Part shown: one piece after another, positions 20,566-42,129 of the stretch
Layout: each line of letters begins with the position of its first letter
How positions within the stretch are numbered: the stretch's first letter is position 1
Source of the DNA: Bacteroidia bacterium
Lineage (GTDB): Bacteria; Bacteroidota; Bacteroidia; CAILMK01; JACPUW01
Assembly: GCA_049115495.1 (NCBI GenBank)
Contig: JAGDZV010000001.1
Location: 705,907 to 769,906 of the forward strand
Length of the DNA: 64,000 bases
Direction: 5' to 3'
The notes under the pieces: generated by a model
The model's input: only the letters and a program-made list of their open reading frames with translations
What the model was told of the DNA's origin: nothing
Databases searched by the model: none
Position numbers and translations under genes: made by a program

Positions 20566-21729
20566 TTAACCTTTTAATACGCCTAGCGGCTTAAGCTCTA
20601 CCACTATTTCGGCTAGGTCTTTTTGGTTTTCCATTACTACATCAATGTTTTTGTAGGCCGATGGCGCTTCATCTAAATCTTTGGCATGACGCATGCCATG
20701 TACAACGCCTTGGCTTTCTAAATGGGCGATTTCAGCTTCAAGATTTAGCTCTCTTTGCGCTTGTCTCCTACCCATTTTTCTTCCGGCGCCGTGGCTACAA
20801 GACTCAAAACTCTCTGGATTTCCTAAGCCTTTTACAATGTATGAGCTTGTTCCCTGAGAGCCTGGAATCATTCCGAACTCCCCTTCTCTTGCTCTTGTAG
20901 CTCCCTTTCTGTGCACCAGTACATTGCTGCCAAAATGATTTTCCCAAGCTGCAAAGTTGTGGCTCTTGTTAATGATCTCATCGGTTTCAAATTCACCAAC
21001 CACCGCCTTTAGAGACTCAACCATTGAGTTCATCATGTGCTTTCTGTTGTTCAAAGCGAACTCAATACAATAGTTCATTTCGGCCAAGTAGTCTTTAGCC
21101 TCAAGAGATTCAATAGGAAAAAATGCAAGCTCCATTTTTTTGGTAACCACCGAATGAAAACGCTCATTGAGCCTTTGCGCTAAAATATTGTAATGCTTAG
21201 CCACCGCATAACCAATGTTTCTAGAGCCAGAATGAATCATAATCCAGATATGGCCGTCAGAACCCTTTTGCAATTCAACAAAATGGTTTCCGCCACCAAG
21301 TGTTCCCACTTGCTTTTGAGCTGCAACATAGTGTCTGTTTACTATTCTCAGTTCTTTTTCAGGTAACTCTGGCATCCAGCTTAGGTCTTGCTTCTCATCA
21401 TGTCGGTTCATTCCCAATGGAATCCTTTTTCTGGCTTCGCCTAAGGTTTTCTTGATGTCTTCAGTTTCAAGCTCGGTAAGTTCAGTTCTCAAGGCACACA
21501 TTCCACAACCAATATCAACACCTACCGCATTTGGCACCACCACATCTTTTGTAGCTAGAATTGAACCTATTGGCATGCCGTAACCTTGGTGGCTATCTGG
21601 CATCAACGGAATATGCTTAAACGCAAATGGCAAGTTGGCCAAGTTTTTAGCTTGCGCCAAGGCTCCCGGCTCTAAATCATCTAACCAAAGTTTAATTGGC
21701 TTGCTCTCAGTTGAAATTACTTTTTTCAT
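20566..21729 (-). CDS. rtcB: RNA-splicing ligase RtcB
   Basis: Conserved metal-site motifs PLMPDSHQGYGMPIGS, GVDIGCGM and GGNHFVE. The N-terminus aligns well with E. coli RtcB. Confidence 0.8.
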   Translation of the reverse strand: MKKVISTESKPIKLWLDDLEPGALAQAKNLANLPFAFKHIPLMPDSHQGYGMPIGSILATKDVVVPNAVGVDIGCGMCALRTELTELETEDIKKTLGEARKRIPLGMNRHDEKQDLSWMPELPEKELRIVNRHYVAAQKQVGTLGGGNHFVELQKGSDGHIWIMIHSGSRNIGYAVAKHYNILAQRLNERFHSVVTKKMELAFFPIESLEAKDYLAEMNYCIEFALNNRKHMMNSMVESLKAVVGEFETDEIINKSHNFAAWENHFGSNVLVHRKGATRAREGEFGMIPGSQGTSSYIVKGLGNPESFESCSHGAGRKMGRRQAQRELNLEAEIAHLESQGVVHGMRHAKDLDEAPSAYKNIDVVMENQKDLAEIVVELKPLGVLKG

Positions 21730-21740
21730 CTTAGTTAAAA

Positions 21741-21800
21741 GTTTAACGTTTAAGGTTTAAAGACTCTTTAAATTTTGAACTTTAAACTCTTAAACTTTTT
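21741..21800. repeat. AT-rich palindromic GGTTTAAAG-family intergenic repeat (REP-like), copy A
   Basis: GTTTAACGTTTAAGGTTTAAAGACTCTTTAAATTTTGAACTTTAAAC. It is related to the copies at 31105, 31371 and 33645. Confidence 0.45.
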
Positions 21801-21942
21801 TTGATGATTCAAAGATTTAGCACATGTACGCAGTGTATTTGCGGAGATAAAAAAAATCCAATTTTAACATAAAACTAAAAAATGAAACCTTTCAGAAAGT
21901 GCTTCTGTTAAACCAGCTACAAATAATTATTACAGCAGCTCC

Positions 21943-22500
21943 ATGCACTTGGCTCAATACTACCAACAGTTCGAAGATATTTTATCAGGCAATTACACTG
22001 AAGCTCCTTACCACAAAGAAGCCTATTTAGAATATGTTAAGCTTAACCGCTCTAGAATGAAACGCTGGAACAAAACGGGCAAAATTTTACCTGAACTTGA
22101 AGAAGTGGTTAGCCAAGTTGTGGCACCTCAGCATTGGCTTCTAATTACCGAGCCTTGGTGTGGCGATGCAGCTAACATTACACCGTTCTTTGAAAAAGTA
22201 GCTGGCTTAAACCCAAATATTAAGATTACCGTACAAAACAGAGATGCCGAGAACAGTGAAATTGAAAAGTACCTAACCAATGGCGGTAGATCGATTCCGA
22301 AGTTGATTATTAGAGATGAATCGGGAAAGGACCTTGCCGTTTGGGGCCCAAGACCAAAAGATGCTCAAGCGCTTTTCCTCAAGTTAAAGGAAGAAAACGC
22401 TGATTTTGAAAAACAAAAGGTAGCGCTGCTTACTTGGTACAATAAAAACAAAGGCTTGCAAATACAAGAAGAGTTGATTGATATTCTTCGATCCTTATAA
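21943..22500 (+). CDS. thioredoxin-family protein
   Basis: WCGDA redox-type motif in a thioredoxin-like fold context. 185 aa. Confidence 0.5.
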   Translation: MHLAQYYQQFEDILSGNYTEAPYHKEAYLEYVKLNRSRMKRWNKTGKILPELEEVVSQVVAPQHWLLITEPWCGDAANITPFFEKVAGLNPNIKITVQNRDAENSEIEKYLTNGGRSIPKLIIRDESGKDLAVWGPRPKDAQALFLKLKEENADFEKQKVALLTWYNKNKGLQIQEELIDILRSL

Positions 22501-31450: not shown

Positions 31451-32551
31451 CTATCCTGATCCAAAAAGCTCTTTCAACTGGCCTGCTATTTGGCCACCAC
31501 CTGAAACAGAGATACCATTGATCTTTTCAGCGATTTTTTCAATGTATTCCATCTCTTTCAGTTTGAACAACATGCCGTTGTTTTCCATTAATTTGGCAGT
31601 GTTTAGCAAACTTCTAGTTGAAGCCGTTTCTTCTCTTCTGGTTATTACGTTAGCTTCAGCTTGTTTTTGGGCAATCAATACTTTGTTCATGATTTCTTTC
31701 ATGTCGCCATTCAAGATCACATCTCTCATACCGCTGCTCAAAACTTCTATACCCAAGGCTTTTGCTTGCTCACTTATCTGGCTTTGCACAAAACCTGAAA
31801 CTGCATCTTTTTTCTCAAGCAATTCGTCAAGGGTAAGCGCACCAACATAACTTCTCAAGGCCAACTGCACCAATACATAAAGTTGTTTTTGGTAGTCGTT
31901 GTTTTCGGTCAAAGCCTTTTCAATATCAACCACTTTGTATTTTACATCATAGTTGATTCTTATAGCAGCCTTGTCTTTGGTTAAAATCTCTTGGCCGTTT
32001 ACTTCTGCTTGCTGAGCTCTTATATCCGCTTTCAAAACTTCAATAGCAATCTCGTTTTTCCAGAAGTAGTAAGTACCAGCTCCAAGCGTTCTATCCAACT
32101 TACCGTCAATAAACAACAAGGCTTTTTGGTAGCTTTCTACTTTTACCTGTCTAATGTATTGCACCACGCCATACCTTTTCAATACTTCAAAGTCTACGTT
32201 TTCTGTAATCTCAACTTTGCTCAAATCGCAGTAAGTAAAATCGTACTCAACATAGCCATTCCAAAAGACATAGGTGCCAGATGTTAATACAGACTGGTAT
32301 CTACCATCTTGCTTACAAATAACAATCTGATTGTCTTTTACATCAACAACGGTTATGTAGTCTTGCAACAGCTCATGCATTGCCATTTGCTTACTATCCA
32401 ATTGTTTCAAATTGGCTCTTTCGCTCATTGATTGGCTAACAATGGATTCACCAAAGCCAAGCCAATAACTTCCTTCAGTTAGCACTCTCACTAACTTTTC
32501 TCTTTTAAACACAAGGCCTATAAAGCCTTGACTAATGGTTACTTTTCTCAT
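31451..32551 (-). CDS. SPFH/band-7 (stomatin/flotillin-like) domain protein
   Basis: Central SPFH block (ILTKDKAAIRINYDVKYKVVD...GMRDVILNGDMKEIMNKVLIAQKQAEANVITRREETA). No N-terminal TM helix is evident. Confidence 0.6.
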   Translation of the reverse strand: MRKVTISQGFIGLVFKREKLVRVLTEGSYWLGFGESIVSQSMSERANLKQLDSKQMAMHELLQDYITVVDVKDNQIVICKQDGRYQSVLTSGTYVFWNGYVEYDFTYCDLSKVEITENVDFEVLKRYGVVQYIRQVKVESYQKALLFIDGKLDRTLGAGTYYFWKNEIAIEVLKADIRAQQAEVNGQEILTKDKAAIRINYDVKYKVVDIEKALTENNDYQKQLYVLVQLALRSYVGALTLDELLEKKDAVSGFVQSQISEQAKALGIEVLSSGMRDVILNGDMKEIMNKVLIAQKQAEANVITRREETASTRSLLNTAKLMENNGMLFKLKEMEYIEKIAEKINGISVSGGGQIAGQLKELFGSG

Positions 32552-32593
32552 TTTATTGAGTTTTTAATTGGTTACTAATTCATTTTAAAGGTC

Positions 32594-32640
32594 ATCCTGA
32601 ACTTTTTGTTCCGAGATATTCGGGAGATTCAGGATCTTTT
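32594..32640 (+). repeat. nested hairpin with T-run (terminator-like), hairpin family member 1
   Basis: ATCCTGAA...(CCGAGATATTCGG)...TTCAGGAT-CTTTTG. The outer stem is the same as family member 3. Confidence 0.4.
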
Positions 32641-32694
32641 GATTGAGACCAAAATGTAGATTCTAAAATTCAAAATCTTGGTCCAATTGAGCAG

Positions 32695-32727
32695 ATTCCG
32701 GATCAAGTCCGGAATGACGTTTTTTTT
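32695..32727 (+). repeat. hairpin plus T8 (intrinsic-terminator-like), hairpin family member 2
   Basis: ATTCCGGA-TCAAG-TCCGGAAT-GACG-TTTTTTTT. The loop and tail are the same as member 3, but the stem carries compensatory changes. Confidence 0.45.
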
Positions 32728-33112
32728 CTAAAAAAGGCGGTACAAGCCAATGCTCCTTGCGTTGTGATGGAAACTGAATTGAGAAAGTGATGAAAGAGAG
32801 TTGGTTTCATCTTAATAGGCTTCTGATTTTCCACCAACCAGCGGAATGACAAAACCATTTCAATCAGAAATTCACTTCTTTATCAAAGTCGGTATCCTTC
32901 ATTTTCAAACCACAACATCAAGTGTTGTAAGTAGAACCTTCTGTCCTACTAATAACTGAGCATCAACCTGTGTGCCTTTGATCATTTGGTTGGCAGTGAT
33001 CATCTGCCGGGACATCCTGAGTTACTGTCAGGTGACATTCTGAAATCCAAATTCAGCGTCTTACACAACATGCGTTAACGGCGCACTGCTATACCACTTA
33101 GCTATCCGCATA

Positions 33113-33140
33113 TTCACGGAGTCGGATTCGAACCGACGAC
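33113..33140 (-). other. degenerate tRNA 3'-end fragment (T-arm GTCGG-TTCGAAT-CCGAC)
   Basis: TTCACGGAGTCGGATTCGAACCGACGAC. This is a direct repeat of 31171-31191 with a 7-nt insertion. The flanking 7-bp inverted repeat CTTAGCT/AGCTAAG does not give a canonical cloverleaf. Confidence 0.35.
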
Positions 33141-33250
33141 AGGTGTTAGTGCCTAATGCTTTTACCAAAAAGCTAAGGTTCATAATGAACCAGGGAGTCG
33201 AACCCAAAGGTTAAAGGCAAACCCTCAATACCAAAGAAGCATACAATTAG

Positions 33251-33275
33251 GTACTACCCATTGCACTATGGAGCC
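33251..33275 (-). other. tRNA 5'-half-like fragment (acceptor + D-arm)
   Basis: The minus strand reads GGCTCCATAGTGCAATGGGTAGTAC, an acceptor-like 7-mer plus a D-arm. No matching 3' acceptor strand is present. Confidence 0.3.
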
Positions 33276-33503
33276 ATACAGAAACTCACATCTGGTCAAT
33301 TGGTATTGATATTTTGAATGACCCCGATCCTGAGCCCGCCTTCCAGTTGAAGACGGGCAACAGTATTTAGAGTCAAATGCTCTTCTAATTCAAGAAATAA
33401 TTTTAGAGAAGGCTTCTCCTTTCCCCAGTTAGCCGTCTAAAAAGTCTTACGTTATTCCTAACTTGATTTGGAATCTGTTTATAAGTGTATTTCAATGTTT
33501 AAG

Positions 33504-33540
33504 ATCCTGAATCAAGTTCAGGATGACATTTTTTATTCTT
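33504..33540 (+). repeat. hairpin plus T-run (intrinsic-terminator-like), hairpin family member 3
   Basis: ATCCTGAA-TCAAG-TTCAGGAT-GACA-TTTTTTATTCTTTTT. Confidence 0.45.
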
Positions 33541-33565
33541 TTTAGACAGCTTCAGCTACATTTTG

Positions 33566-33639
33566 TGATCCCTATGGGACTCGAACCCATAACCCACTGA
33601 TTAAAAGTCAGCTACTCTGGCCAATTGAGCTAAAGGATC
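33566..33639 (-). tRNA. tRNA-Lys (anticodon UUU)
   Basis: The minus strand reads GATCCTT-TA-GCTCAATTGGCCAGAGT-A-GCTGA-CTTTTAA-TCAGT-GGGTT-ATGGG-TTCGAGT-CCCAT-AGGGATC-A. It has a 7-bp acceptor stem with one G-U, and the anticodon loop is CU-UUU-AA. No CCA is encoded. Confidence 0.8.
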
Positions 33640-33644
33640 TCTAT

Positions 33645-33715
33645 AGTTTTAAAGTGAAAAGTTTAAGGTTTAAAGGCTCTTTAAACATTGAACCTTAATC
33701 TTTAAACTTCTCTTC
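33645..33715. repeat. GGTTTAAAG-family repeat, copy D
   Basis: AAGTTTAAGGTTTAAAGGCTCTTTAAACATTGAACCTTAATCTTTAAAC lies between the tRNA-Lys 5' end and the WYL-PhyH gene. Confidence 0.45.
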
Positions 33716-33745
33716 GTCCTTCCGACGGTTCAAATATTTCGGCTC

Positions 33746-35524
33746 TTGTGCGCAGCCTATTTGCGCAATAAAAAAATAGGTGTATTTTTCTCAAAATTTT
33801 TTCTCGTGCCAGTAAATCGCAATGCGCTAATTAGATACAAGACCATTGATAAATGCCTGCAAAACCGCTACAGAAAGTGGACGCTAGATGATTTAATTGA
33901 AGCTTGCGGTGATGCACTTTATGAATATGAAGGCATAGACTCGGGCGTTAGTCGACGCACAGTTCAAGGCGATATTCAAATGATGCGCAGCGATAAATTA
34001 GGCTATAACGCACCAATTGTAGTGAAAGAGAAGAAATACTATTCCTATGAAGATGATGATTACTCAATCACCAATATTCCACTTACCGATCAAGATTTGG
34101 GTCATTTATCTGAAGCAGTTGAGTTCATGAAACAGTTTCAGGGTTTTTCGCACTTTAAAGAGCTAGACAGCATGGTGCAGAAATTAGAAGACCATATCTA
34201 TTCTCAAAAAACCAACACCCAAAGTGTTATTGATATAGAGAAAAATGAAAACCTAAAAGGTCTAGAGCATCTGAATACACTGTACAAGGCAATAATAAAT
34301 CAGCAGTGTATTAATATTCTATACCAATCATTTAAGGCTCGTGAACCTAAGAACTACGATTTTCATCCTTACCTATTAAAAGAATATAGAAATCGGTGGT
34401 TTTTGGTTGGCATGGTTGATAAACGAAGCGATATTCTGTTTTTGGCTTTAGATAGGATAATATCAATTTCAAAAAGTGAAAGAATCTTTAAAGAGAACCC
34501 TGAATTTGATTCGGAAACATTTTTTAAAAATGCCATTGGTGTTTCGGTTTCGCCAGGCTTAGAGCCTATTGAAGTTAAGCTTTGGATTAGTCAATTACAT
34601 GCCCCATATGTATTAACAAAACCGTTTCATCATAGCCAAAGGCTAGAAGAAAGAACACCATACGGAACCATAATTTCCTTTAAAGTTCTACACAATTTTG
34701 AGCTTGAAAAAGAGATTTTGGCCTTTGCCGATGGAGTTAAAGTGATTTCGCCACCAAGCCTAAAGCGCCGAATTGTGCAAAGGCTTAAGAATAGTGTTGA
34801 CATATACGATACCGAGCTTAGCGATAAAGGCATATTTAGCGCCAAAAAGCAATTAGAGCATAAAGGTTATGCCATTTTGAATAACATCTATTCGAGTAGA
34901 GACTTGAGAAAGATCAGCGGAGTTCTACAACACCAGGGCAAAAAGAATTACGGCCTTAGACAGCTATTCGAAAAATTTCCAGAGCTAGTAAAACTTGTTT
35001 TTAATGAAAACCTAAGAAAACTTGTAAAAGGAATTGATCCAAAATCTTTTGTGGTAAAATCTATCTACTTTGACAAACCGCAAGATGCCAATTGGTTTGT
35101 GCCATGGCATCAAGATATTCCGATTAATGTAAAGGAGAAAATAGAGACTAACGGGTTCGAAAAGTGGACTTTTAAAAAAGACATTCATAGCGTTTGGCCG
35201 CCTATTGAAGTAAACCACAACGCGTTTACAATTAGAATACATCTTGACAAGACAGACGCTAGAAATGGTGCGCTAAAAGTATTACCAGGCTCGCATAGAA
35301 AACGTTTTAGCAAAGAAGAGCAGAAATTGATTACCGAAAACAGCCAAGCCACCATTTGCGAAATTGAAGCCGGGGGTGTGCAGCTTATAAAGCCACTGCT
35401 TTTACATGCAAGCGATAAATCAACCACACAAAAAAAGCGAAGAGTAATTCACATTGAATTTGCTTCAATGGAGCTTGAAGGGGAGTTGGAGTGGTTAGAA
35501 AGGATTAACGACGCAACTTATTAA
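33746..35524 (+). CDS. HTH-WYL-WCX transcriptional regulator fused to a C-terminal PhyH-family Fe(II)/2-oxoglutarate dioxygenase domain
   Basis: The N-terminal ~350 aa form a complete PafC/YafY-like regulator. It has an HTH (YRKWTLDDLIEACGDALYEYEG-IDSGVSRRTVQGDIQMMRS), a WYL domain (HPYLLKEYRNRWFLVGMVDKRSDILFLALDRIISI) and a WCX end (ILAFADGVKVISPPSLKRRIVQRL). The C-terminal ~240 aa have the PhyH facial-triad motifs WHQD (HxD) and LKVLPGSHR. The real start is probably the GTG at about 33803 (VPVNRNALIRYK). Confidence 0.65.
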   Translation: MCAAYLRNKKIGVFFSKFFLVPVNRNALIRYKTIDKCLQNRYRKWTLDDLIEACGDALYEYEGIDSGVSRRTVQGDIQMMRSDKLGYNAPIVVKEKKYYSYEDDDYSITNIPLTDQDLGHLSEAVEFMKQFQGFSHFKELDSMVQKLEDHIYSQKTNTQSVIDIEKNENLKGLEHLNTLYKAIINQQCINILYQSFKAREPKNYDFHPYLLKEYRNRWFLVGMVDKRSDILFLALDRIISISKSERIFKENPEFDSETFFKNAIGVSVSPGLEPIEVKLWISQLHAPYVLTKPFHHSQRLEERTPYGTIISFKVLHNFELEKEILAFADGVKVISPPSLKRRIVQRLKNSVDIYDTELSDKGIFSAKKQLEHKGYAILNNIYSSRDLRKISGVLQHQGKKNYGLRQLFEKFPELVKLVFNENLRKLVKGIDPKSFVVKSIYFDKPQDANWFVPWHQDIPINVKEKIETNGFEKWTFKKDIHSVWPPIEVNHNAFTIRIHLDKTDARNGALKVLPGSHRKRFSKEEQKLITENSQATICEIEAGGVQLIKPLLLHASDKSTTQKKRRVIHIEFASMELEGELEWLERINDATY

Positions 35525-35532
35525 AATTGAAG

Positions 35533-38500
35533 CTACTTCACCCTATTAAGCACAACAAACACCACTTCATCGTCTACCGATAACCTTGCAATGTGCACAC
35601 CGGCGGCTAATAACCCAAGCTCATTCTTTAGTTGGTAATCGTGTATTCCTGCACCTAGTTTTGAATTGACCAAGGTGTTCACTACCCTGCCGTGCATATC
35701 TACAAGCTCTAGCTTAACTTGAGCCGGCTCGTTAATTACGTAGCTCAATGTAAGTTGTTTACTAAACGGGTTTGGGTAAGCATTAAGACCGAACGACCGA
35801 TTTAGTTCACTAACGGAGTTTATTTTAATACTCTTATTCTTTGAAACTATACTACTGCAACTTGATGCATTGGTTGATGTGCAGGTGATGTTATAACCTC
35901 CCTCAGCAGCAAATGTGTGTGTGGCCACCGCTCCCCTTGCTGTTGCTCCATCGCCAAAACTCCAAATAAAGGAACTCAACGAAGTATCTACTTGGCTCCC
36001 TACCTCAAAATTGAAAGTAAGTCCGGTTAAATTGCTATACGTCCATTCAGGTAATGAAGGTGATTTGAGAATAGTAATACTCAAAGAATCTTTATCAGTA
36101 CATTCATATTTCGATGTTGCTTCTAACACGACATTATAAGTTCCGTAAGCACCGTAAATGTGCGTTGGATTTTGTGCCGTATTTGAATTATTATCACCAA
36201 ACTCCCATTTAAACTGAGCTGCATCTTCTGATTCATTCAAAAAGAAAATGGTGTCCTTCTCACAAAACCCGGTAAAATCAAACTTGGCTATAGGCTGCAA
36301 GTAGGAGCTGAATTCATATAATACAACATCATTATTTTTATTGGTATCTCTTGAATATTCAGTATGAATAGTAAGATCCTGTTTTCCTTCGCTTATAAAT
36401 TCAATTGGGTTATTTAAAGCTATCCGTATTTCATCCATTGGTTTTAAAACAAAGGCATTTGGCATATTCAGCCATTCATAATCTTTAGCACCATTAACAT
36501 CACTATTAACTTTTAAAGAATCAGCGCTATAAACAATGCTAGGACCTTCATTTCTTATGACTATAGCAATAGAATCTAGATTGCCAATTTTTCTACATGA
36601 ATCAAGGGGCCCTAATACTTCAACTATTTTAATGTCTTTCCTAATTTCATCGGCTCCAATATCAGGGTTTGTATTTGACCTTTTATCACCATCCTTATCA
36701 TGCGCAACGCCAAATGAACCACCGCTCGCCATCAATGAAACAGCACCTGCATGTAAATCATCAATAGAAGTGAAATAAGGCTGGTCTGAAATTGAATGTT
36801 GATTCTGATCAACTGAAATTGATTTGATTTGGGCTAAATCTGTTTGCACTCCATTAATTTGAGCAAGGTTTTTGGCCCGCGGTGCGTAGTAATCATTATA
36901 GTCAAACATGCCTTTCAGATAGATGCCACTTGACTCTATTATTGCTTCGCCTTTACCCAAGGACATAAAAATATTATTGGCAACTGCCCCATTTTCAATA
37001 TTTAATAAACTTGTTGCTGCGCTTAAACTTGTTGAATCTGTAACCAATACACTGTTGTGCAAAATATCAATGTACCTTGAGTTGTTGACTTCAAGAGCAG
37101 CTTTTGCACTTTGACTACCTGAGGCTATTAGAAAATTGTTTGCAATAACTGATGTATCAACCCCACTTGAGTTTTCGCCCTTAATGCTGATTGCTTGAGC
37201 GGTTGAATTAATTGAATTGGCAATAATGTGATTTGCCGCACCATCTTGAAAACTTAGTGCAAGGGCATCGTTCCTTTTAAGCCCTTTGATTTCATTATTA
37301 GTAAATTGAGTATGCGCAACATTTGTAAAGGAAGCACCGAACTTATGCTGCTCAAAGAAAACATTTACAGCAAACTCATTGCCTTCAAGCATTTTTTGGC
37401 CCGTGTTTCCCATAAAAACAACTCCATAATATCCACCAATTATTTGATTGTTTTGCACTTTGTTATTATTAACATTTTTTGTTTCAGTTAATTTATAATC
37501 AGAGCCGCTTGCCACTACCGCCGCATTGTTAAGGCTATTTGTACTTTTTGAAGCGATAAGCTTGCAGTTAGTAATGCTATTATGTTTTGAGTTGTTTGCA
37601 AAATAAACAGCTCTGCCATCAGCATTTGACGTAGTTTGTATAGTAAGACTATCAAAAGTGAAGTAACTTACATTGCCTAGTTTTAATGTATGCAAACCTT
37701 GTTTCCCGTTGTGGCTAAGTATGGTACTATCGCTTTGCCCCACTATTCTAATTTGTGTTGTGTCTGATACCCCGCTTATAAATGGAACATTAATTTGCCC
37801 CTGATAAAGTCCTTTTTGTAGCCTAATAGTTAATGGTTTTGATATACCTGAACACTCAAGGTACTCAAATGCTTCATTTAAAGTTTCAAAATTAGCATTC
37901 AGCTTGCCTACACTAATTACACTTTTCTTTTCATCGAGGCAAAGGCTTTTACAAAAATGTTCTCTAAGCCTATCAGGGTCACTGTTTCTAAACCTTTTTG
38001 TAATGGTTGCGCAAAGCTGATACCCATTGCCCGTTGTTACGGTATCAGGCCTAAACGGCGTATCAAAAACAAAACTTACTGTATCGCGACGCAGAACTGT
38101 GCCGGTTTTAAAACTTTGCTCAACTACCACACCGCTATCTACAGTATATGCGAGCGATATTTGGTCATTAAACCAAGTCTTAATTCCATCATTCTTAACC
38201 GTAACTCGTATTTTATTTTCTCCATATTTAAAAGAGCGTGGTGCAACATCAACAATATCTGCATCATATTCAATTATGGCAAACTCATAAGCACCTATAT
38301 CAAAGTTCTTATCTCCTTGTGCAGGTCTTTTGTTACCGTAAAAATCTTTGGCAAACTTGTTTTCATTATAACCAGTATTATCTAATTGCCTTGCCTTGGT
38401 TCTTAAATCACCAAAGTCAAAATAGCGTGGGTTAACTGAAATTGAATGAGAGTCTTTTCTCGATACATTTACATATGAGGCCAATGAAGAGTGGTTACTC

Positions 38501-41500
38501 CAAGCATAAATAAAATTGGTGCTATTTGGCGCGTAAAAGTTATTGTAGTCCATTTCTCCAGGGTCAACTGCTGACTTTGAAAAAGCAAAACCTTCAAATT
38601 CTCTGTAAATGCAATTATTTTTTATTATTCCTGTACCTTCAAGCCTAAATGCCGCGGCGCTAACGTGATTGGTAGTTTTGCTTTTATTCCAAATACTGTT
38701 ACCTATAACATAAGTATTGACACCATAATAGTATAGAGAATGAACATTTTGGTTTGATGAGCCCGAAATCATATTATTCACCACATATCCTGAATCAAAA
38801 TCAGCAAGATAGACTCCGTGTCCTTCTACAACCACTCTGTTTGAAGCCACTGAATCGCCCTCACTCTCAAATATGTAGAAACCATAGGCGATGTTCTGAT
38901 TAACAGAGTCAATATCGTTTCCTACAAAATATTGATGCCTATTTCTTCCTGAATAAAAAACGATTCCGTTTTGATTCCTGAAAACGTTATTTATAAATGA
39001 ATTATGCTGATCGCGCTTTTGCGGAGAACAAACCCAATAAACGCCACTTCCTCCTTCAAGCCTATTATTCTCAAAAGTATTGAAGCTACCATTTCTTTCT
39101 CCGAAAGCTTCAATAATATATCCGCTATTATTTGCCCCCTTACTCTTAAGCGTTGAGTTTTTTACGACATTACTATCGCTGTAATTCTCAAAAATAAAAA
39201 CTTCGCCATCAGCGGCAGTCGTTTCTAACATTAGGCTATCGAAAATGAAGTGTTTAGCCCCATTTAGCTTAAAAGTAGTCTTGGTAACTTTTGAATTATT
39301 TGTAACTACACTACTTTGCCCAGCTCCTACAATGGTAACTGTGTTTCTGTAAGAAGCCCCCCTTATAAACCCCATTTTAACAAAATCATGAATACTATCT
39401 CTAGCAACTCTTATAGTGGTTGGCTGAGACAATCCTGAGCAGCTTAGATGATTAATGGCGTATGATAATTTTTTAAAGTCGGCACCAGAACTGCCAACCG
39501 TAATCACTGGGTTAATAAATTCAGAGCATATTGAATCGCAAAAAACATCACCTAAAGCGTCGGGGTCTTCTCCCCTAAAAGGTTTAGTAAATCTTATGCA
39601 TACCTTTCGCTTTTTTGCTTTCCCAATGAGGTAATATGGTAAAGTAAAGCTAAACTGCACAGTACTATCAGGCTTTACTATACCCGTTACTATGGTATCT
39701 TTCACGGCTGCTGCCGAATCAATCGCATATTCAACAAAAATGCTATCACTGTTCCAAGTTTTAGTTCCGTAATTTTCAATTACAACACCTATCGTATTAT
39801 TTCCCCTTGTTAAGTACTTATTTTCAATATCAACTATATCAGCGTCCCAAGGATATATATAGTACTCATCAGCGCCTATATCATAAGTAGAATCAAGCTT
39901 AATAGGCCTACTTTCTCCATCAAAATCAGACTTTAAAACACTCAGGTTTTTCCCCTTATTGTTTAGGTTATAACTTATGGTATGTAAATCTCTATCGCCA
40001 AAAAACTCGGGATTCACACTCAGTGAATGTTGATTTTGTGTTGAATCATCTTGTTGCCAATCTGCAATGGTTTTATAGCCTTCTCCATTCAAACGCGCCA
40101 AATAACTTCCATTAATACTGTAGTAGTTGTTATGGTCTATATAGCCATTTCTTAAGTCTCTGATAGTTGCATAAACTGGAAAACTATTTTGGCTTACTAT
40201 AATGTTATTTTGGATTTTTAAATCGCTAACTGATTCTTTATAAAGAGTTGTTTCAAATAACATGGTTGAGTTAGACAGTGTAACTCTTGGGCTCCTTGAA
40301 AAAAGACTGTTTCCAAGAAAATGCATTTGCTTTATTCTATCGCCATAAATGGTATTGCTTTTACCGTTTTGTTGACCTGACATCATATTGTTCATTACAT
40401 AAGATGTGTCGTAATCCCAATCTTGGTTTGCTCTGAGAAAGAACATTCCATAATTTGGTGTAAATACGGTATTGCCGCATAAACTGTCAGCGGCATTCTC
40501 CCTGCTATATATGCCAATTCCATCATCATGGGCAAGGCTATCTATTGTATTACCGATAATGCGCATACCATGGCAATGCATATAATAAATACTGTAAGCC
40601 AACTGATTATAAAACTCATTATGTTGAATCCAAAATCTAGTATTTGCAGGTTTTGATTTTGAATACCCCCTTATGTATAGCCCGTAATACCCGCCTGATA
40701 TCTTGTTGCCAATTAATTTAAAGTTTCTAATGGTTCTTTGATGTCCATCACCTCCGGTTGACGAGCCAGAAATATGAACCCCCGCAATAACACTTCTATT
40801 TATGGTCGGATTAACAAGATCGGCTGAAATATTGCAGTTTGTTACTGCATTATAATTTGAGTTTCTTTCTACCCAAATTACGCGACCGCCATTAGTGTTT
40901 GTGTTTTTAATGGCTAAGCTATCAATTGTATAAAAACTTGCGTATCTAAATGTTAAGGTAAAGTTTGCGGAGCTCGTAAGAACGGTTGAATCGGCTCCTG
41001 CTCCAACTATACGTATTGTATTTTCTTTGCTTGCTCCCCTAATTGGGTTTAGAATTACCTGTTCTTTATAAACACCTGGTTTTACCCTTATAGTTACTGG
41101 GCCGCACATGCCATTAATTCTTAGGCTGTCAATAGCCATATCTACTGAAGTAAAATCGGCACCGCTTGAACCAACGGTATAAAGCCCACTCATTGAGCTT
41201 GGTTTGTCAATTATAACTTCAAGGGTATCGTTGTAGCGAGATGAATCTAGAGTTCCATTAACAGAATCAATATAAATTTTGAAGGTGTCGTTAATGGCTT
41301 TAGAAAATGTATGATTCCCAATAAAAACAGAAGCCTTTTCTCCAGGTAAAATATTTGAATTAAAAACTGCAGAAGGCTGTTGAACGCCATTTATACTCCA
41401 CGAAATTTTACCCTTAGCAATTGTATTATTTCCTACATTGCTTAAAACTACGTTTACCGGAGAAGTTCCTACACAGCTAGGTTCAATTGATAATATACCT

Positions 41501-42129
41501 GCATTATTACCTAATTCTTCAACAATGCTTATATCATCAATACTAAATTCATTTGGTTCATTTTTGTCATATTCTAGCACTTGTGTAAATCGCAATTGAA
41601 AATTACTTCCTACGTCTTGATTATTCACGCGCAATATTGAGTCAATATCAACCTCTACCTTTTGCCAACCAGCGGTTCTATTTATATCTGTATTGCAAAC
41701 GGCAATCCAGTTGAATGTATCGTTTCCTCTAATCCAAACCTTATTCATAGAGTCAGAATTGGCGTTTCCGTTTAAATACCAAAAACTCAACTTTAGCTGA
41801 GATGAATCGTAATCACTTAAATCATGAGTAAATACTAATGAATTACTAGACTTGCCAGCTGGAATATTGGCCATAAATACATCGAAAGTGCCCGATCTAG
41901 AACCTGTACGATAAAAATCTTGACCTGGGGTAAAATACAGTCGCCCCATATTGTTGGTATTAAACTGCACATTGCTTAGGCCGTTTATATAGGATGTATT
42001 TGAAGCAACCGATTTAGCGGTTGTGTTTTCAAACCCTTCATACCAAGGCAAAGTGTTTTGCGCCTTAAGCGGGGTAACGATAAAAAAAATGCAAAAAACT
42101 ATAACTAATGACTGAAAAATTCTACTCAT
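35533..42129 (-). CDS. 2198-aa secreted T9SS cargo protein: three tandem beta-helix + Ig-like modules, two PKD domains, Por_Secre_tail CTD
   Basis: Signal peptide. Three ~450-aa modules start (Y/I)TVGSSGADF...TIRV and end with DIGA(D/Y)E plus a CARDB-like segment (YDIGADEYYIYPWDADIVD / FDIGAYEFAIIEYDADIVD / NPDIGADEIRKDIKIVE). Two PKD domains follow (WEFGDNNSNTAQNPTHIYGAYGTYNV; WSFGDGATARGAVATHTF). The C-terminus is a T9SS sorting domain (LNAYPNPFSKQLTLSY...). Confidence 0.7.
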   Translation of the reverse strand: MSRIFQSLVIVFCIFFIVTPLKAQNTLPWYEGFENTTAKSVASNTSYINGLSNVQFNTNNMGRLYFTPGQDFYRTGSRSGTFDVFMANIPAGKSSNSLVFTHDLSDYDSSQLKLSFWYLNGNANSDSMNKVWIRGNDTFNWIAVCNTDINRTAGWQKVEVDIDSILRVNNQDVGSNFQLRFTQVLEYDKNEPNEFSIDDISIVEELGNNAGILSIEPSCVGTSPVNVVLSNVGNNTIAKGKISWSINGVQQPSAVFNSNILPGEKASVFIGNHTFSKAINDTFKIYIDSVNGTLDSSRYNDTLEVIIDKPSSMSGLYTVGSSGADFTSVDMAIDSLRINGMCGPVTIRVKPGVYKEQVILNPIRGASKENTIRIVGAGADSTVLTSSANFTLTFRYASFYTIDSLAIKNTNTNGGRVIWVERNSNYNAVTNCNISADLVNPTINRSVIAGVHISGSSTGGDGHQRTIRNFKLIGNKISGGYYGLYIRGYSKSKPANTRFWIQHNEFYNQLAYSIYYMHCHGMRIIGNTIDSLAHDDGIGIYSRENAADSLCGNTVFTPNYGMFFLRANQDWDYDTSYVMNNMMSGQQNGKSNTIYGDRIKQMHFLGNSLFSRSPRVTLSNSTMLFETTLYKESVSDLKIQNNIIVSQNSFPVYATIRDLRNGYIDHNNYYSINGSYLARLNGEGYKTIADWQQDDSTQNQHSLSVNPEFFGDRDLHTISYNLNNKGKNLSVLKSDFDGESRPIKLDSTYDIGADEYYIYPWDADIVDIENKYLTRGNNTIGVVIENYGTKTWNSDSIFVEYAIDSAAAVKDTIVTGIVKPDSTVQFSFTLPYYLIGKAKKRKVCIRFTKPFRGEDPDALGDVFCDSICSEFINPVITVGSSGADFKKLSYAINHLSCSGLSQPTTIRVARDSIHDFVKMGFIRGASYRNTVTIVGAGQSSVVTNNSKVTKTTFKLNGAKHFIFDSLMLETTAADGEVFIFENYSDSNVVKNSTLKSKGANNSGYIIEAFGERNGSFNTFENNRLEGGSGVYWVCSPQKRDQHNSFINNVFRNQNGIVFYSGRNRHQYFVGNDIDSVNQNIAYGFYIFESEGDSVASNRVVVEGHGVYLADFDSGYVVNNMISGSSNQNVHSLYYYGVNTYVIGNSIWNKSKTTNHVSAAAFRLEGTGIIKNNCIYREFEGFAFSKSAVDPGEMDYNNFYAPNSTNFIYAWSNHSSLASYVNVSRKDSHSISVNPRYFDFGDLRTKARQLDNTGYNENKFAKDFYGNKRPAQGDKNFDIGAYEFAIIEYDADIVDVAPRSFKYGENKIRVTVKNDGIKTWFNDQISLAYTVDSGVVVEQSFKTGTVLRRDTVSFVFDTPFRPDTVTTGNGYQLCATITKRFRNSDPDRLREHFCKSLCLDEKKSVISVGKLNANFETLNEAFEYLECSGISKPLTIRLQKGLYQGQINVPFISGVSDTTQIRIVGQSDSTILSHNGKQGLHTLKLGNVSYFTFDSLTIQTTSNADGRAVYFANNSKHNSITNCKLIASKSTNSLNNAAVVASGSDYKLTETKNVNNNKVQNNQIIGGYYGVVFMGNTGQKMLEGNEFAVNVFFEQHKFGASFTNVAHTQFTNNEIKGLKRNDALALSFQDGAANHIIANSINSTAQAISIKGENSSGVDTSVIANNFLIASGSQSAKAALEVNNSRYIDILHNSVLVTDSTSLSAATSLLNIENGAVANNIFMSLGKGEAIIESSGIYLKGMFDYNDYYAPRAKNLAQINGVQTDLAQIKSISVDQNQHSISDQPYFTSIDDLHAGAVSLMASGGSFGVAHDKDGDKRSNTNPDIGADEIRKDIKIVEVLGPLDSCRKIGNLDSIAIVIRNEGPSIVYSADSLKVNSDVNGAKDYEWLNMPNAFVLKPMDEIRIALNNPIEFISEGKQDLTIHTEYSRDTNKNNDVVLYEFSSYLQPIAKFDFTGFCEKDTIFFLNESEDAAQFKWEFGDNNSNTAQNPTHIYGAYGTYNVVLEATSKYECTDKDSLSITILKSPSLPEWTYSNLTGLTFNFEVGSQVDTSLSSFIWSFGDGATARGAVATHTFAAEGGYNITCTSTNASSCSSIVSKNKSIKINSVSELNRSFGLNAYPNPFSKQLTLSYVINEPAQVKLELVDMHGRVVNTLVNSKLGAGIHDYQLKNELGLLAAGVHIARLSVDDEVVFVVLNRVK

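Follow-up and report, generated by a model that had tools for sequence, protein, structure and literature searches.

The comparative evidence presented here argues strongly that a WYL-type transcriptional regulator with an unusual fused enzyme domain stands at the head of an RNA-repair regulon in Bacteroidota. Its gene lies in a stretch of 64,000 nucleotides of the Bacteroidia bacterium assembly GCA_049115495.1 (contig JAGDZV010000001.1, positions 705,907 to 769,906), hereafter called the window, and encodes in one frame a winged helix-turn-helix (HTH), a WYL domain, a WCX domain and an Fe(II)/2-oxoglutarate (2OG) oxygenase domain of the PhyH type. On strong, purely computational grounds, the protein is predicted to bind a 19-bp motif and to control RNA-repair genes, including a distant rtcB. 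An RNA-repair function is proposed for the regulator half because of its conserved neighbours and the motif that they share; this context is the main functional clue to the family, and it was absent from the preliminary description of the locus.

The open reading frame (ORF) extends without interruption over 33746..35524 (+). Pfam recognizes on the protein, in this order, WYL (PF13280; E 4.8e-14, 52.6 bits versus a cut-off of 21.8), WCX (PF25583; E 6.4e-11, 42.9 bits versus a cut-off of 23.9) and PhyH (E 4.5e-12), each above its curated cut-off, and an NCBIfam scan of the protein revealed no domain beyond these three. Translation almost certainly begins at GTG 33806, because the identical (100%) database protein has 572 aa, because the 26 aligned homologues start at this position, except for two with longer called N-termini, and because a start at TTG 33746 would place a conserved operator (33749..33767) inside the ORF. 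The GTG 33806 product begins MPVNRNALIRYK, and the N-terminal pattern of the homologues is M-[PAS]-x-N-[RK]-N-A-L. The single-frame fusion of the preliminary description is upheld in its uninterrupted frame and its WYL, WCX and PhyH domains, but not in its start: TTG 33746 was rejected in view of the 572-aa identical protein and the homologue N-termini. The gene and its parts are as follows.

33806..35524 (+): HTH-WYL-WCX-PhyH fusion gene, 572 aa, GTG start, end including the stop codon (ORF, Pfam, database homologues)
33806..34048 (+): winged HTH, approximately residues 1-81, the putative DNA-binding part (AlphaFold2 model, Foldseek alignment to DriD)
34265..34465 (+): WYL domain, residues 154-220, presumed ligand sensor (Pfam PF13280)
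34562..34792 (+): WCX domain, residues 253-329 (Pfam PF25583 and profile matches to DriD and PafBC)
34823..35521 (+): PhyH-type Fe(II)/2OG oxygenase domain, residues 340-572
35108-35110, 35114-35116, 35405-35407 and 35438-35443 (+): H435, D437, H534 and R545/R546, respectively

In the AlphaFold2 model the N-terminus consists of three helices and a beta-hairpin wing, and the full-length Foldseek alignment to the DriD-DNA complex spans this region; the model and the alignment together suggest that a winged helix is present. The WYL domain resembles the C-domain of DriD bound to single-stranded DNA (ssDNA; 7tzv, TM 0.79, Foldseek), and the DriD and PafBC profiles match over the WCX stretch.

The fusion is a real and widely conserved family of Bacteroidota. 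Searching ~5.8 billion proteins yielded more than 120 clusters whose members, 570-600 aa long, share 58-79% identity with the query over 97-100% of its length; all three Pfam domains are recorded in 118 of these clusters, and two of the three in the other two. The architecture occurs across Flavobacteriales, Cytophagales and Saprospiraceae, and the named source genera include Flexithrix, Flavivirga, Catalinimonas, Lacinutrix, Wocania, Roseivirga and Limibacter. An assembly or frameshift artefact is excluded by these independent full-length clusters, some encoded on multi-megabase contigs. The names given to these proteins in databases are generic ('WYL domain-containing protein' or 'YafY/ectoine hydroxylase-related dioxygenase'), and a literature search, outside which Burroughs & Aravind 2016 remained, found neither the oxygenase fusion nor its operator or regulon described; the preliminary description, which did not recognize the architecture as a described family, agrees with this. 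Counting one genome per species, at least 588 tblastn-confirmed stretches encode relatives of the N-terminal core, fused and unfused together. Eighty such loci (L001-L080) were fetched for comparison, making 81 with the window. The fused C-terminal domain is found in L001-L036 and in L039, where it is recognizable from the protein alignment alone; L054 and L055 carry another C-terminal domain, and the remaining loci encode unfused proteins of ~335 aa. Unfused orthologues are 54-62% identical to residues 1-335 and directly divergent from rtcB. A split-gene scenario was rejected: within 10 kb, tblastn detected no separate oxygenase gene in the 44 loci without a recognizable PhyH domain (L037-L080).

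A 19-bp inverted repeat, T[GA]CGCA-N7-TGCG[CT]A (TRCGCA-N7-TGCGYA; consensus ACTGCGCAGTCTTTTTGCGTAGT), is found upstream of the regulator genes, with an exact copy in 67 of the 80 loci. Its spacer is T-rich on the strand of the regulator and its orientation is fixed across loci. The repeat lies at most 400 bp upstream of 60 of 79 regulator genes, 36 of them with 30-50 bp between it and the start codon, and at most 200 bp upstream of 28 of 46 rtcB and 14 of 17 rsr genes, as against 16 of 823 other ORFs. In loci with a Band-7 gene, the operator precedes a tRNA-like RNA and not the Band-7 ORF itself, at 117-260 bp where no tRNA gene lies between. The corresponding elements of the window are listed here.

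33749..33767 (no strand assigned): operator TGCGCAGCCTATTTGCGCA, TGCGCA-N7-TGCGCA, an exact match to the motif, 39 bp upstream of GTG 33806 and between divergent promoters
33565..33639 (-): tRNA-Lys(UUU) (ARAGORN; Rfam tRNA 68.6 bits)
33072..33299 (-): structured tRNA-like RNA of ~230 nt between the tRNA-Lys and the Band-7 gene, related to YrlA and to the 'band 7-associated tRNA'
31451..32551 (-): SPFH/Band-7 gene, 366 aa, downstream of the tRNA-like RNA (Pfam Band_7, E 1.1e-25)
21827..21845 (no strand assigned): second operator copy TACGCAGTGTATTTGCGGA, one mismatch, 98 bp upstream of rtcB
20566..21729 (-): RtcB RNA ligase gene, 387 aa, putative distant member of the regulon (Pfam RtcB, E 3.9e-109; tblastn)
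21722..21870 and 33636..33790: paralogous promoter-leader regions, before rtcB and before tRNA-Lys

When one mismatch is allowed, these two operators are the only matches in the window, compared with 0.30 expected by chance. The stretches downstream of them on the minus strand are 81% identical over ~150 nt, so rtcB and the tRNA-Lys unit possess paralogous promoter-leader modules. In both, a -7-like AAnnTTTG box follows 13 nt after the operator and precedes a repeat-rich leader of ~90 nt; the shared leader pattern is AAGTTTAAAG..GGTTCAA..TTTAAAGAG.CTTTAAACCTTAAAC. A gene of the Thioredoxin_9 family (21943..22500, +) is divergent from rtcB and shares with it the intergenic region that holds the operator at 21827..21845; this gene may belong to the regulon.

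ORFs were called and clustered in the 80 loci and the window, and the recurrent neighbours were identified by Pfam. Those related to RNA repair are the following.

RtcB RNA ligase: 41 of the 81 loci
SPFH/Band-7 protein, 366 aa: 23 of the 81 loci, the window included, always upstream and divergent
Ro60/TROVE protein (rsr): 17 of the 81 loci
RlaP nucleotidyltransferase, two kinds: 10 and 9 of the 81 loci
PrfH-like release factor: 6 of the 81 loci

Almost all of these genes are upstream of the regulator gene and on the opposite strand; in the window this divergent position is taken by the tRNA-Lys / tRNA-like RNA / Band-7 unit. Of the 25 loci whose oxygenase domain is catalytically intact, 24 have one or more of the repair markers, as do 28 of the 42 unfused loci, several of these 42 having short flanks.

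The tRNA-like RNA matches the YrlA family (RF02553) at 33059..33168 (-) with 42 bits and an E-value of 1.5e-7, below the gathering score of 69; at the gathering threshold, the Rfam matches of the window and of nine related loci are all tRNAs. With nhmmer, homologues of ~210-230 nt were detected in ~21 loci, almost all of which have Band-7, and they keep both the position and the strand. An alignment of 12 copies displays compensatory changes at 31 of 44 predicted pairs, and the consensus fold comprises a conserved 5' box, two T-arm-like hairpins and one D-arm-like hairpin. The conserved box, GACCnGATGAGAGTTTCTGTATAGCTCCATAGT, contains a CUGAUGA-like string. This ~230-nt RNA is probably the predicted 'b7a-tRNA': a 'band 7-associated tRNA', predicted and unvalidated, is associated with RtcB and Band-7 in a preprint (bioRxiv 10.1101/312249), which attributes it to Burroughs & Aravind 2016. 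The window resembles the RtcB/Band-7/b7a-tRNA and RtcB/Ro60/Y-RNA/RlaP loci quoted there in that a tRNA-like RNA and a tRNA precede its Band-7 gene, and the related loci add RtcB, TROVE, RlaP and PrfH; the RtcB gene of the window, however, is not adjacent.

The tRNA-Lys is probably transcribed from the regulated promoter, because it is located between the operator and the tRNA-like RNA / Band-7 unit and on their strand. In the window and in L005, L006, L009, L015, L025 and L029, tRNAs share the strand of the tRNA-like RNA and separate it from the operator; given this placement, such tRNAs may be induced together with the repair genes. More generally, tRNA genes or arrays of 4-12 tRNAs are beside the regulator gene in 19 of the 80 loci. 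The loci hold 81 tRNAs in 1.3 Mb, i.e. ~62 per Mb, which we take to be several-fold above the expectation for a Bacteroidota genome. The commonest neighbouring tRNAs are tRNA-Tyr (10 copies) and tRNA-Lys (6 copies), and some array members have low Rfam scores. A speculative role for the extra tRNAs is that of spares against anticodon nucleases. Examples of these tRNAs and arrays are given below.

Window, 33565..33639
L005:9061-9861
L012:10383-10813
L017:12684-13177
L025:2792-4133
L026:12658-14731
L056:3860-4613
L066:9826-10769

ARAGORN also reports 'tRNA-???' genes with odd anticodon loops (L045:7965-8051, L026:12658-12743 and L066:10432-10517). The one in L045 is just downstream of rsr (Ro60), and partial matches to the profile of the tRNA-like RNA occur beside rsr in many loci; these genes and partial matches are probably Y RNAs of the YrlA type. 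Between the Band-7 gene and the tRNA-Lys, short hairpin repeats (GTCATCCTGAACTTGATTCAGGATC and GTCATTCCGGACTTGATCCGGAATC, at 32580..32720 and 33495..33530) were noticed by eye and resemble repetitive extragenic palindromic (REP)-type elements.

In the oxygenase domain, WHQD constitutes the HxD motif and provides H435 and D437, and the distal histidine is H534, in LLLHAS, followed by R545/R546; the triad was assigned by motif position rather than by superposition. No substitution of H435, D437 or H534 occurs in 27 fused sequences or in a set of 32 sequences made up of the window domain and 31 homologues, mostly of ~230-280 aa, and R545/R546 are invariant or nearly so in both sets. The PGSH histidine (H497), a Gln in 3 of the 27 aligned homologues, is ruled out as an iron ligand for that reason. 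Of the ligands named in the preliminary description, WHQD was therefore correctly read as HxD and the distal one, placed in PGSHR, has to be moved to H534; its view of an intact oxygenase agrees with a domain that looks catalytically competent, its ligand residues being present. The His...Arg spacing (~11 residues) matches that of H264/R275 in PAHX, in which the arginine binds the C5 carboxylate of 2OG. The domain has the double-stranded beta-helix fold of the PhyH subfamily, and its top structural neighbours include AviO1, EvdO1/O2, HygX and SnoK/SnoN, enzymes that act on sugar moieties. An AlkB- or TET-type fold with a nucleotide-recognition lid was not encountered, AlkB and TET being far more distant in the fold ranking, which leaves an AlkB-like RNA demethylase unsupported; the fold neighbours argue against direct base repair.

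In the main clade, to which the window belongs, sequences of different orders are ~60% identical overall, and all of them keep H435, D437, H534 and R545/R546. This invariance, together with that of the same residues in unfused relatives, points to selection for catalysis in this clade. Bacteroidota commonly encode such unfused oxygenases, which have ~235 aa, 35-49% identity and intact ligands. In two Mucilaginibacter metagenome-assembled genomes (MAGs), the core is fused instead to a Tpt1/KptA RNA 2'-phosphotransferase (PF01885, E 1.9e-47) at the position of the oxygenase, so an RNA-end-linked enzyme can occupy this slot.

L054:10001-11608: HTH-WYL-WCX-Tpt1/KptA gene, Mucilaginibacter MAG
L055:1750-3354: HTH-WYL-WCX-Tpt1/KptA gene, Mucilaginibacter MAG

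No operator was found in these two loci, and no SPFH, Ro60 or RlaP gene nearby; in L055 an ORF of the RtcB cluster is located 440 bp upstream on the same strand. The MAG of L054 also holds L052, an unfused rtcB-linked copy, and the two are regarded as paralogues because they occur in the same MAG.

Based on these data, we propose that the fusion protein belongs to the one-component transcription factors of the HTH-WYL-WCX class, with DriD, PafBC, CapW and BrxR, and that it would control the RNA-repair regulon of Bacteroidota and would be a functional analogue of RtcR. Its winged helix would bind TGCGCA-N7-TGCGCA, which covers the -33 region of two promoters arranged back to back and is separated by ~13 nt from a -7-like box, and its WYL domain would sense a nucleic-acid product of RNA damage, as suggested by analogy with ssDNA binding by DriD/PafBC and with the sensing of tRNA fragments by the CARF domain of RtcR. 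Ligand binding would then switch on or de-repress rtcB, the tRNA-Lys / tRNA-like RNA / Band-7 unit and the regulator itself. We consider it probable that the regulator half acts in this way, through this operator, on these targets and in response to such a ligand. Activation is slightly favoured, because there is no obvious -33 element within the operator and by analogy with DriD and PafBC, with repression nearly as likely. The oxygenase most likely forms a second module that is coupled to the switch, be it as an enzyme acting on a small molecule, a sugar or a protein side chain related to the damage signal, or as an input dependent on Fe, O2 and 2OG.

The proposed scheme has partial counterparts in known systems. 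DriD of Caulobacter and PafBC of Actinobacteria have the same HTH-WYL-WCX scaffold (Foldseek E ~3e-13 to 8tp8 and 9fnd) and, like the fusion protein, a palindromic operator overlapping an upstream promoter element; a nucleic-acid ligand, as theirs is, is presumed for the sensor of the fusion. They sense ssDNA and control DNA-damage genes, whereas the fusion family is linked to RNA-repair genes, recognizes in all likelihood another operator (TGCGCA-N7-TGCGCA), has an extra oxygenase domain of 230 aa and shares only ~15% sequence identity with them. RtcR of Proteobacteria is divergent from rtcB/rsr operons, as are most homologues of the fusion family, and both are presumed to couple RNA damage to the induction of RtcB. 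However, RtcR consists of a CARF domain, an AAA+ domain and a Fis-type HTH and depends on sigma-54; neither a CARF sensor nor a sigma-54 AAA+ domain was found on the fusion protein by Pfam or NCBIfam, and the two proteins are unrelated and only analogous. A role for WYL and CARF transcription factors in sensing RNAs that end in cyclic phosphates, and in regulating RNA repair, has been suggested in a general way (PMC9503650). As for the oxygenase half, PAHX, PHYHD1, EctD, SnoK/SnoN, AviO1/EvdO2 and the proline hydroxylase H11, all of the PhyH type, are 14-21% identical to it; these enzymes stand alone, their substrates are acyl-CoA, ectoine, amino acids or antibiotic sugars, and none is fused to a DNA-binding regulator. 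Trigger enzymes, which unite a DNA-binding regulator and an enzyme in one polypeptide, are exemplified by Ada, PutA, BirA and NadR, and Ada couples nucleic-acid repair chemistry to the induction of a repair regulon. These proteins differ from the fusion in fold and chemistry, and in the fusion the coupling of catalysis to regulation is only proposed.

Several points weigh against the proposed scheme. Every member of the family is known from sequence and models alone, and the sequence does not decide between activator and repressor. No Pfam HTH model matches the fusion protein at E <= 0.1, so that, of the complete HTH-WYL-WCX regulator claimed initially, WYL and WCX stand on Pfam and the HTH on the model and the match to DriD. 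The rtcB gene of the window is 12 kb from the regulator gene and not adjacent to it; its operator copy has one mismatch, and at that stringency two or more matches appeared in 4 of 100 shuffles. The iron ligands have disappeared in 12 of the 37 fused loci, in which the domain is kept but only 22-36% identical to that of the window. These C-terminal domains of 190-230 aa, devoid of HxD and distal His, are located as follows.

L019, L027-L036 and L039: C-terminal domain without the ligands

Pfam did not recognize PhyH in L027, the one ligand-less locus scanned. In a rough neighbour-joining tree the ligand-less lineages are interspersed among intact ones, which suggests a repeated loss of catalysis; their number implies that catalysis is not essential everywhere. 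Finally, no RNA-repair genes were found around unfused relatives of the oxygenase in the five loci examined, where the neighbours are PorZ and RecO, SprB with PorP/SprF (two loci), DUF2480, and a GAF/SpoIIE protein; with no common functional theme among these five, their context was discarded as a clue to the substrate.

The readings of the oxygenase were ranked as catalytic first, as an Fe/O2/2OG-dependent input second, and as mostly structural or sensory third. That the domain is a catalytic module coupled to the signal, working in the manner of a trigger enzyme or on a small molecule, a sugar or a protein, is put forward tentatively. The two mechanisms suggested in the preliminary description, a regulator that modifies its own effector and an oxygenase gated by a WYL-sensed ligand, are both candidates. 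A more specific version, in which it would oxidize a damaged RNA end, a ribose or an RNA-derived WYL ligand and thereby make or destroy the inducing signal, is rather doubtful. It is in keeping with the conserved catalytic residues, the sugar-directed structural neighbours and the presence of Tpt1/KptA, an RNA-end-modifying enzyme, at the same position in the Mucilaginibacter paralogues. To our knowledge, however, no PhyH-type enzyme acts on nucleic acids, the AlkB and TET folds are much more distant, the five loci of unfused relatives lack an RNA-repair context, and the ligand-less lineages apparently still function. A precedent for coupling between a regulator and an enzyme does exist, since the sensor domain of RtcR is reported to bind RtcA and RtcB physically (PMC9650030). 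Catalytic coupling of the oxygenase to the RNA-damage switch, whether by oxidation of an RNA terminus, a ribose or the WYL ligand or by making the regulon dependent on O2, Fe or 2OG, must likewise be viewed with considerable doubt. It is unlikely that the domain serves mainly as a sensory or structural module with no or only loose catalysis, offering a ligand pocket or an oligomerization surface to a protein that would be a regulator only: the iron ligands and R545/R546 would then hardly be expected to be invariant in the main clade at such divergence, or in the unfused relatives.

Much the weakest reading, and already largely refuted, is that of a WYL switch of the defence or DNA-damage type, carried on an island at the tRNA-Lys site and/or controlling the gene of a 2198-aa surface protein. 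WYL regulators do often control defence and DNA-damage genes (the DriD and PafBC matches; PMC4012209), and the fusion gene does adjoin a tRNA and a giant gene (35533..42129), the two being convergent, tail to tail; in the supposed type IX secretion system (T9SS) surface protein Pfam detects PKD domains only. Control of that gene by the fusion is contradicted by the convergent orientation and by the position of both operator copies of the window, far from it, and no giant surface-protein family is among the conserved neighbour clusters. Nor does the idea of an island at a tRNA-Lys hot-spot hold: no integrase or transposase was seen by eye or by Pfam among the ORF translations of 14-44 kb, the GC content is 0.34-0.41 throughout, and a tRNA or tRNA array is found on the opposite strand at the same position in the repair loci of unrelated genomes. 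With its leader, the tRNA belongs to a conserved regulated unit and is part of a recurring RNA-repair arrangement, not an integration scar.

Two further observations concern relatives of the oxygenase. An unfused oxygenase of ~240 aa directly follows PorZ in a Chitinophagaceae MAG (L081:8001-8720), and in two Flavobacteriaceae unfused oxygenases follow SprB / PorP-SprF / OmpA-like gliding/T9SS genes (L084:5881-6603 and L085:6001-6717). This adjacency, reminiscent of the position of the window gene beside the giant PKD protein, comes from three loci, two of them syntenic, and may be due to chance. An HTH-oxygenase without WYL and WCX is encoded in Echinicola rosea (L083:8001-9258) and has one relative in E. 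strongylocentroti, these being the only two species; no repair genes and no operator were found at the E. rosea locus. Translation of the gene range there (1258 nt) does not give the database protein; the gene is therefore probably a decaying derivative, and it was set aside as uninformative on whether the oxygenase could be the sole sensor.

The sensing of RNA damage and the induction of RtcB are largely unknown outside Proteobacteria, and the one studied regulator, RtcR, is absent here. The family described in this work is a phylum-wide candidate regulator with a defined operator, which makes the RNA-repair regulon of Bacteroidota directly testable. A single promoter type ties together the unvalidated Band-7-associated tRNA-like RNA, Ro60/Y-RNA, RlaP and, in places, tRNA genes. 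The fused oxygenase, and Tpt1/KptA in the paralogue, may point to an oxidative or metabolic link with RNA repair, or to a new RNA-related oxygenase chemistry. Were catalytic coupling true, RNA repair would gain its first trigger enzyme of the 2OG-oxygenase kind, and the PhyH type its first enzyme whose role is linked to nucleic acids; the regulon under its control would include a ligase, a scaffold (Band-7 or Ro60) accompanied by tRNA-like RNAs, and perhaps spare tRNAs. If the oxygenase is only an accessory sensor, the result would still upgrade the annotation of hundreds of 'WYL domain-containing' proteins.

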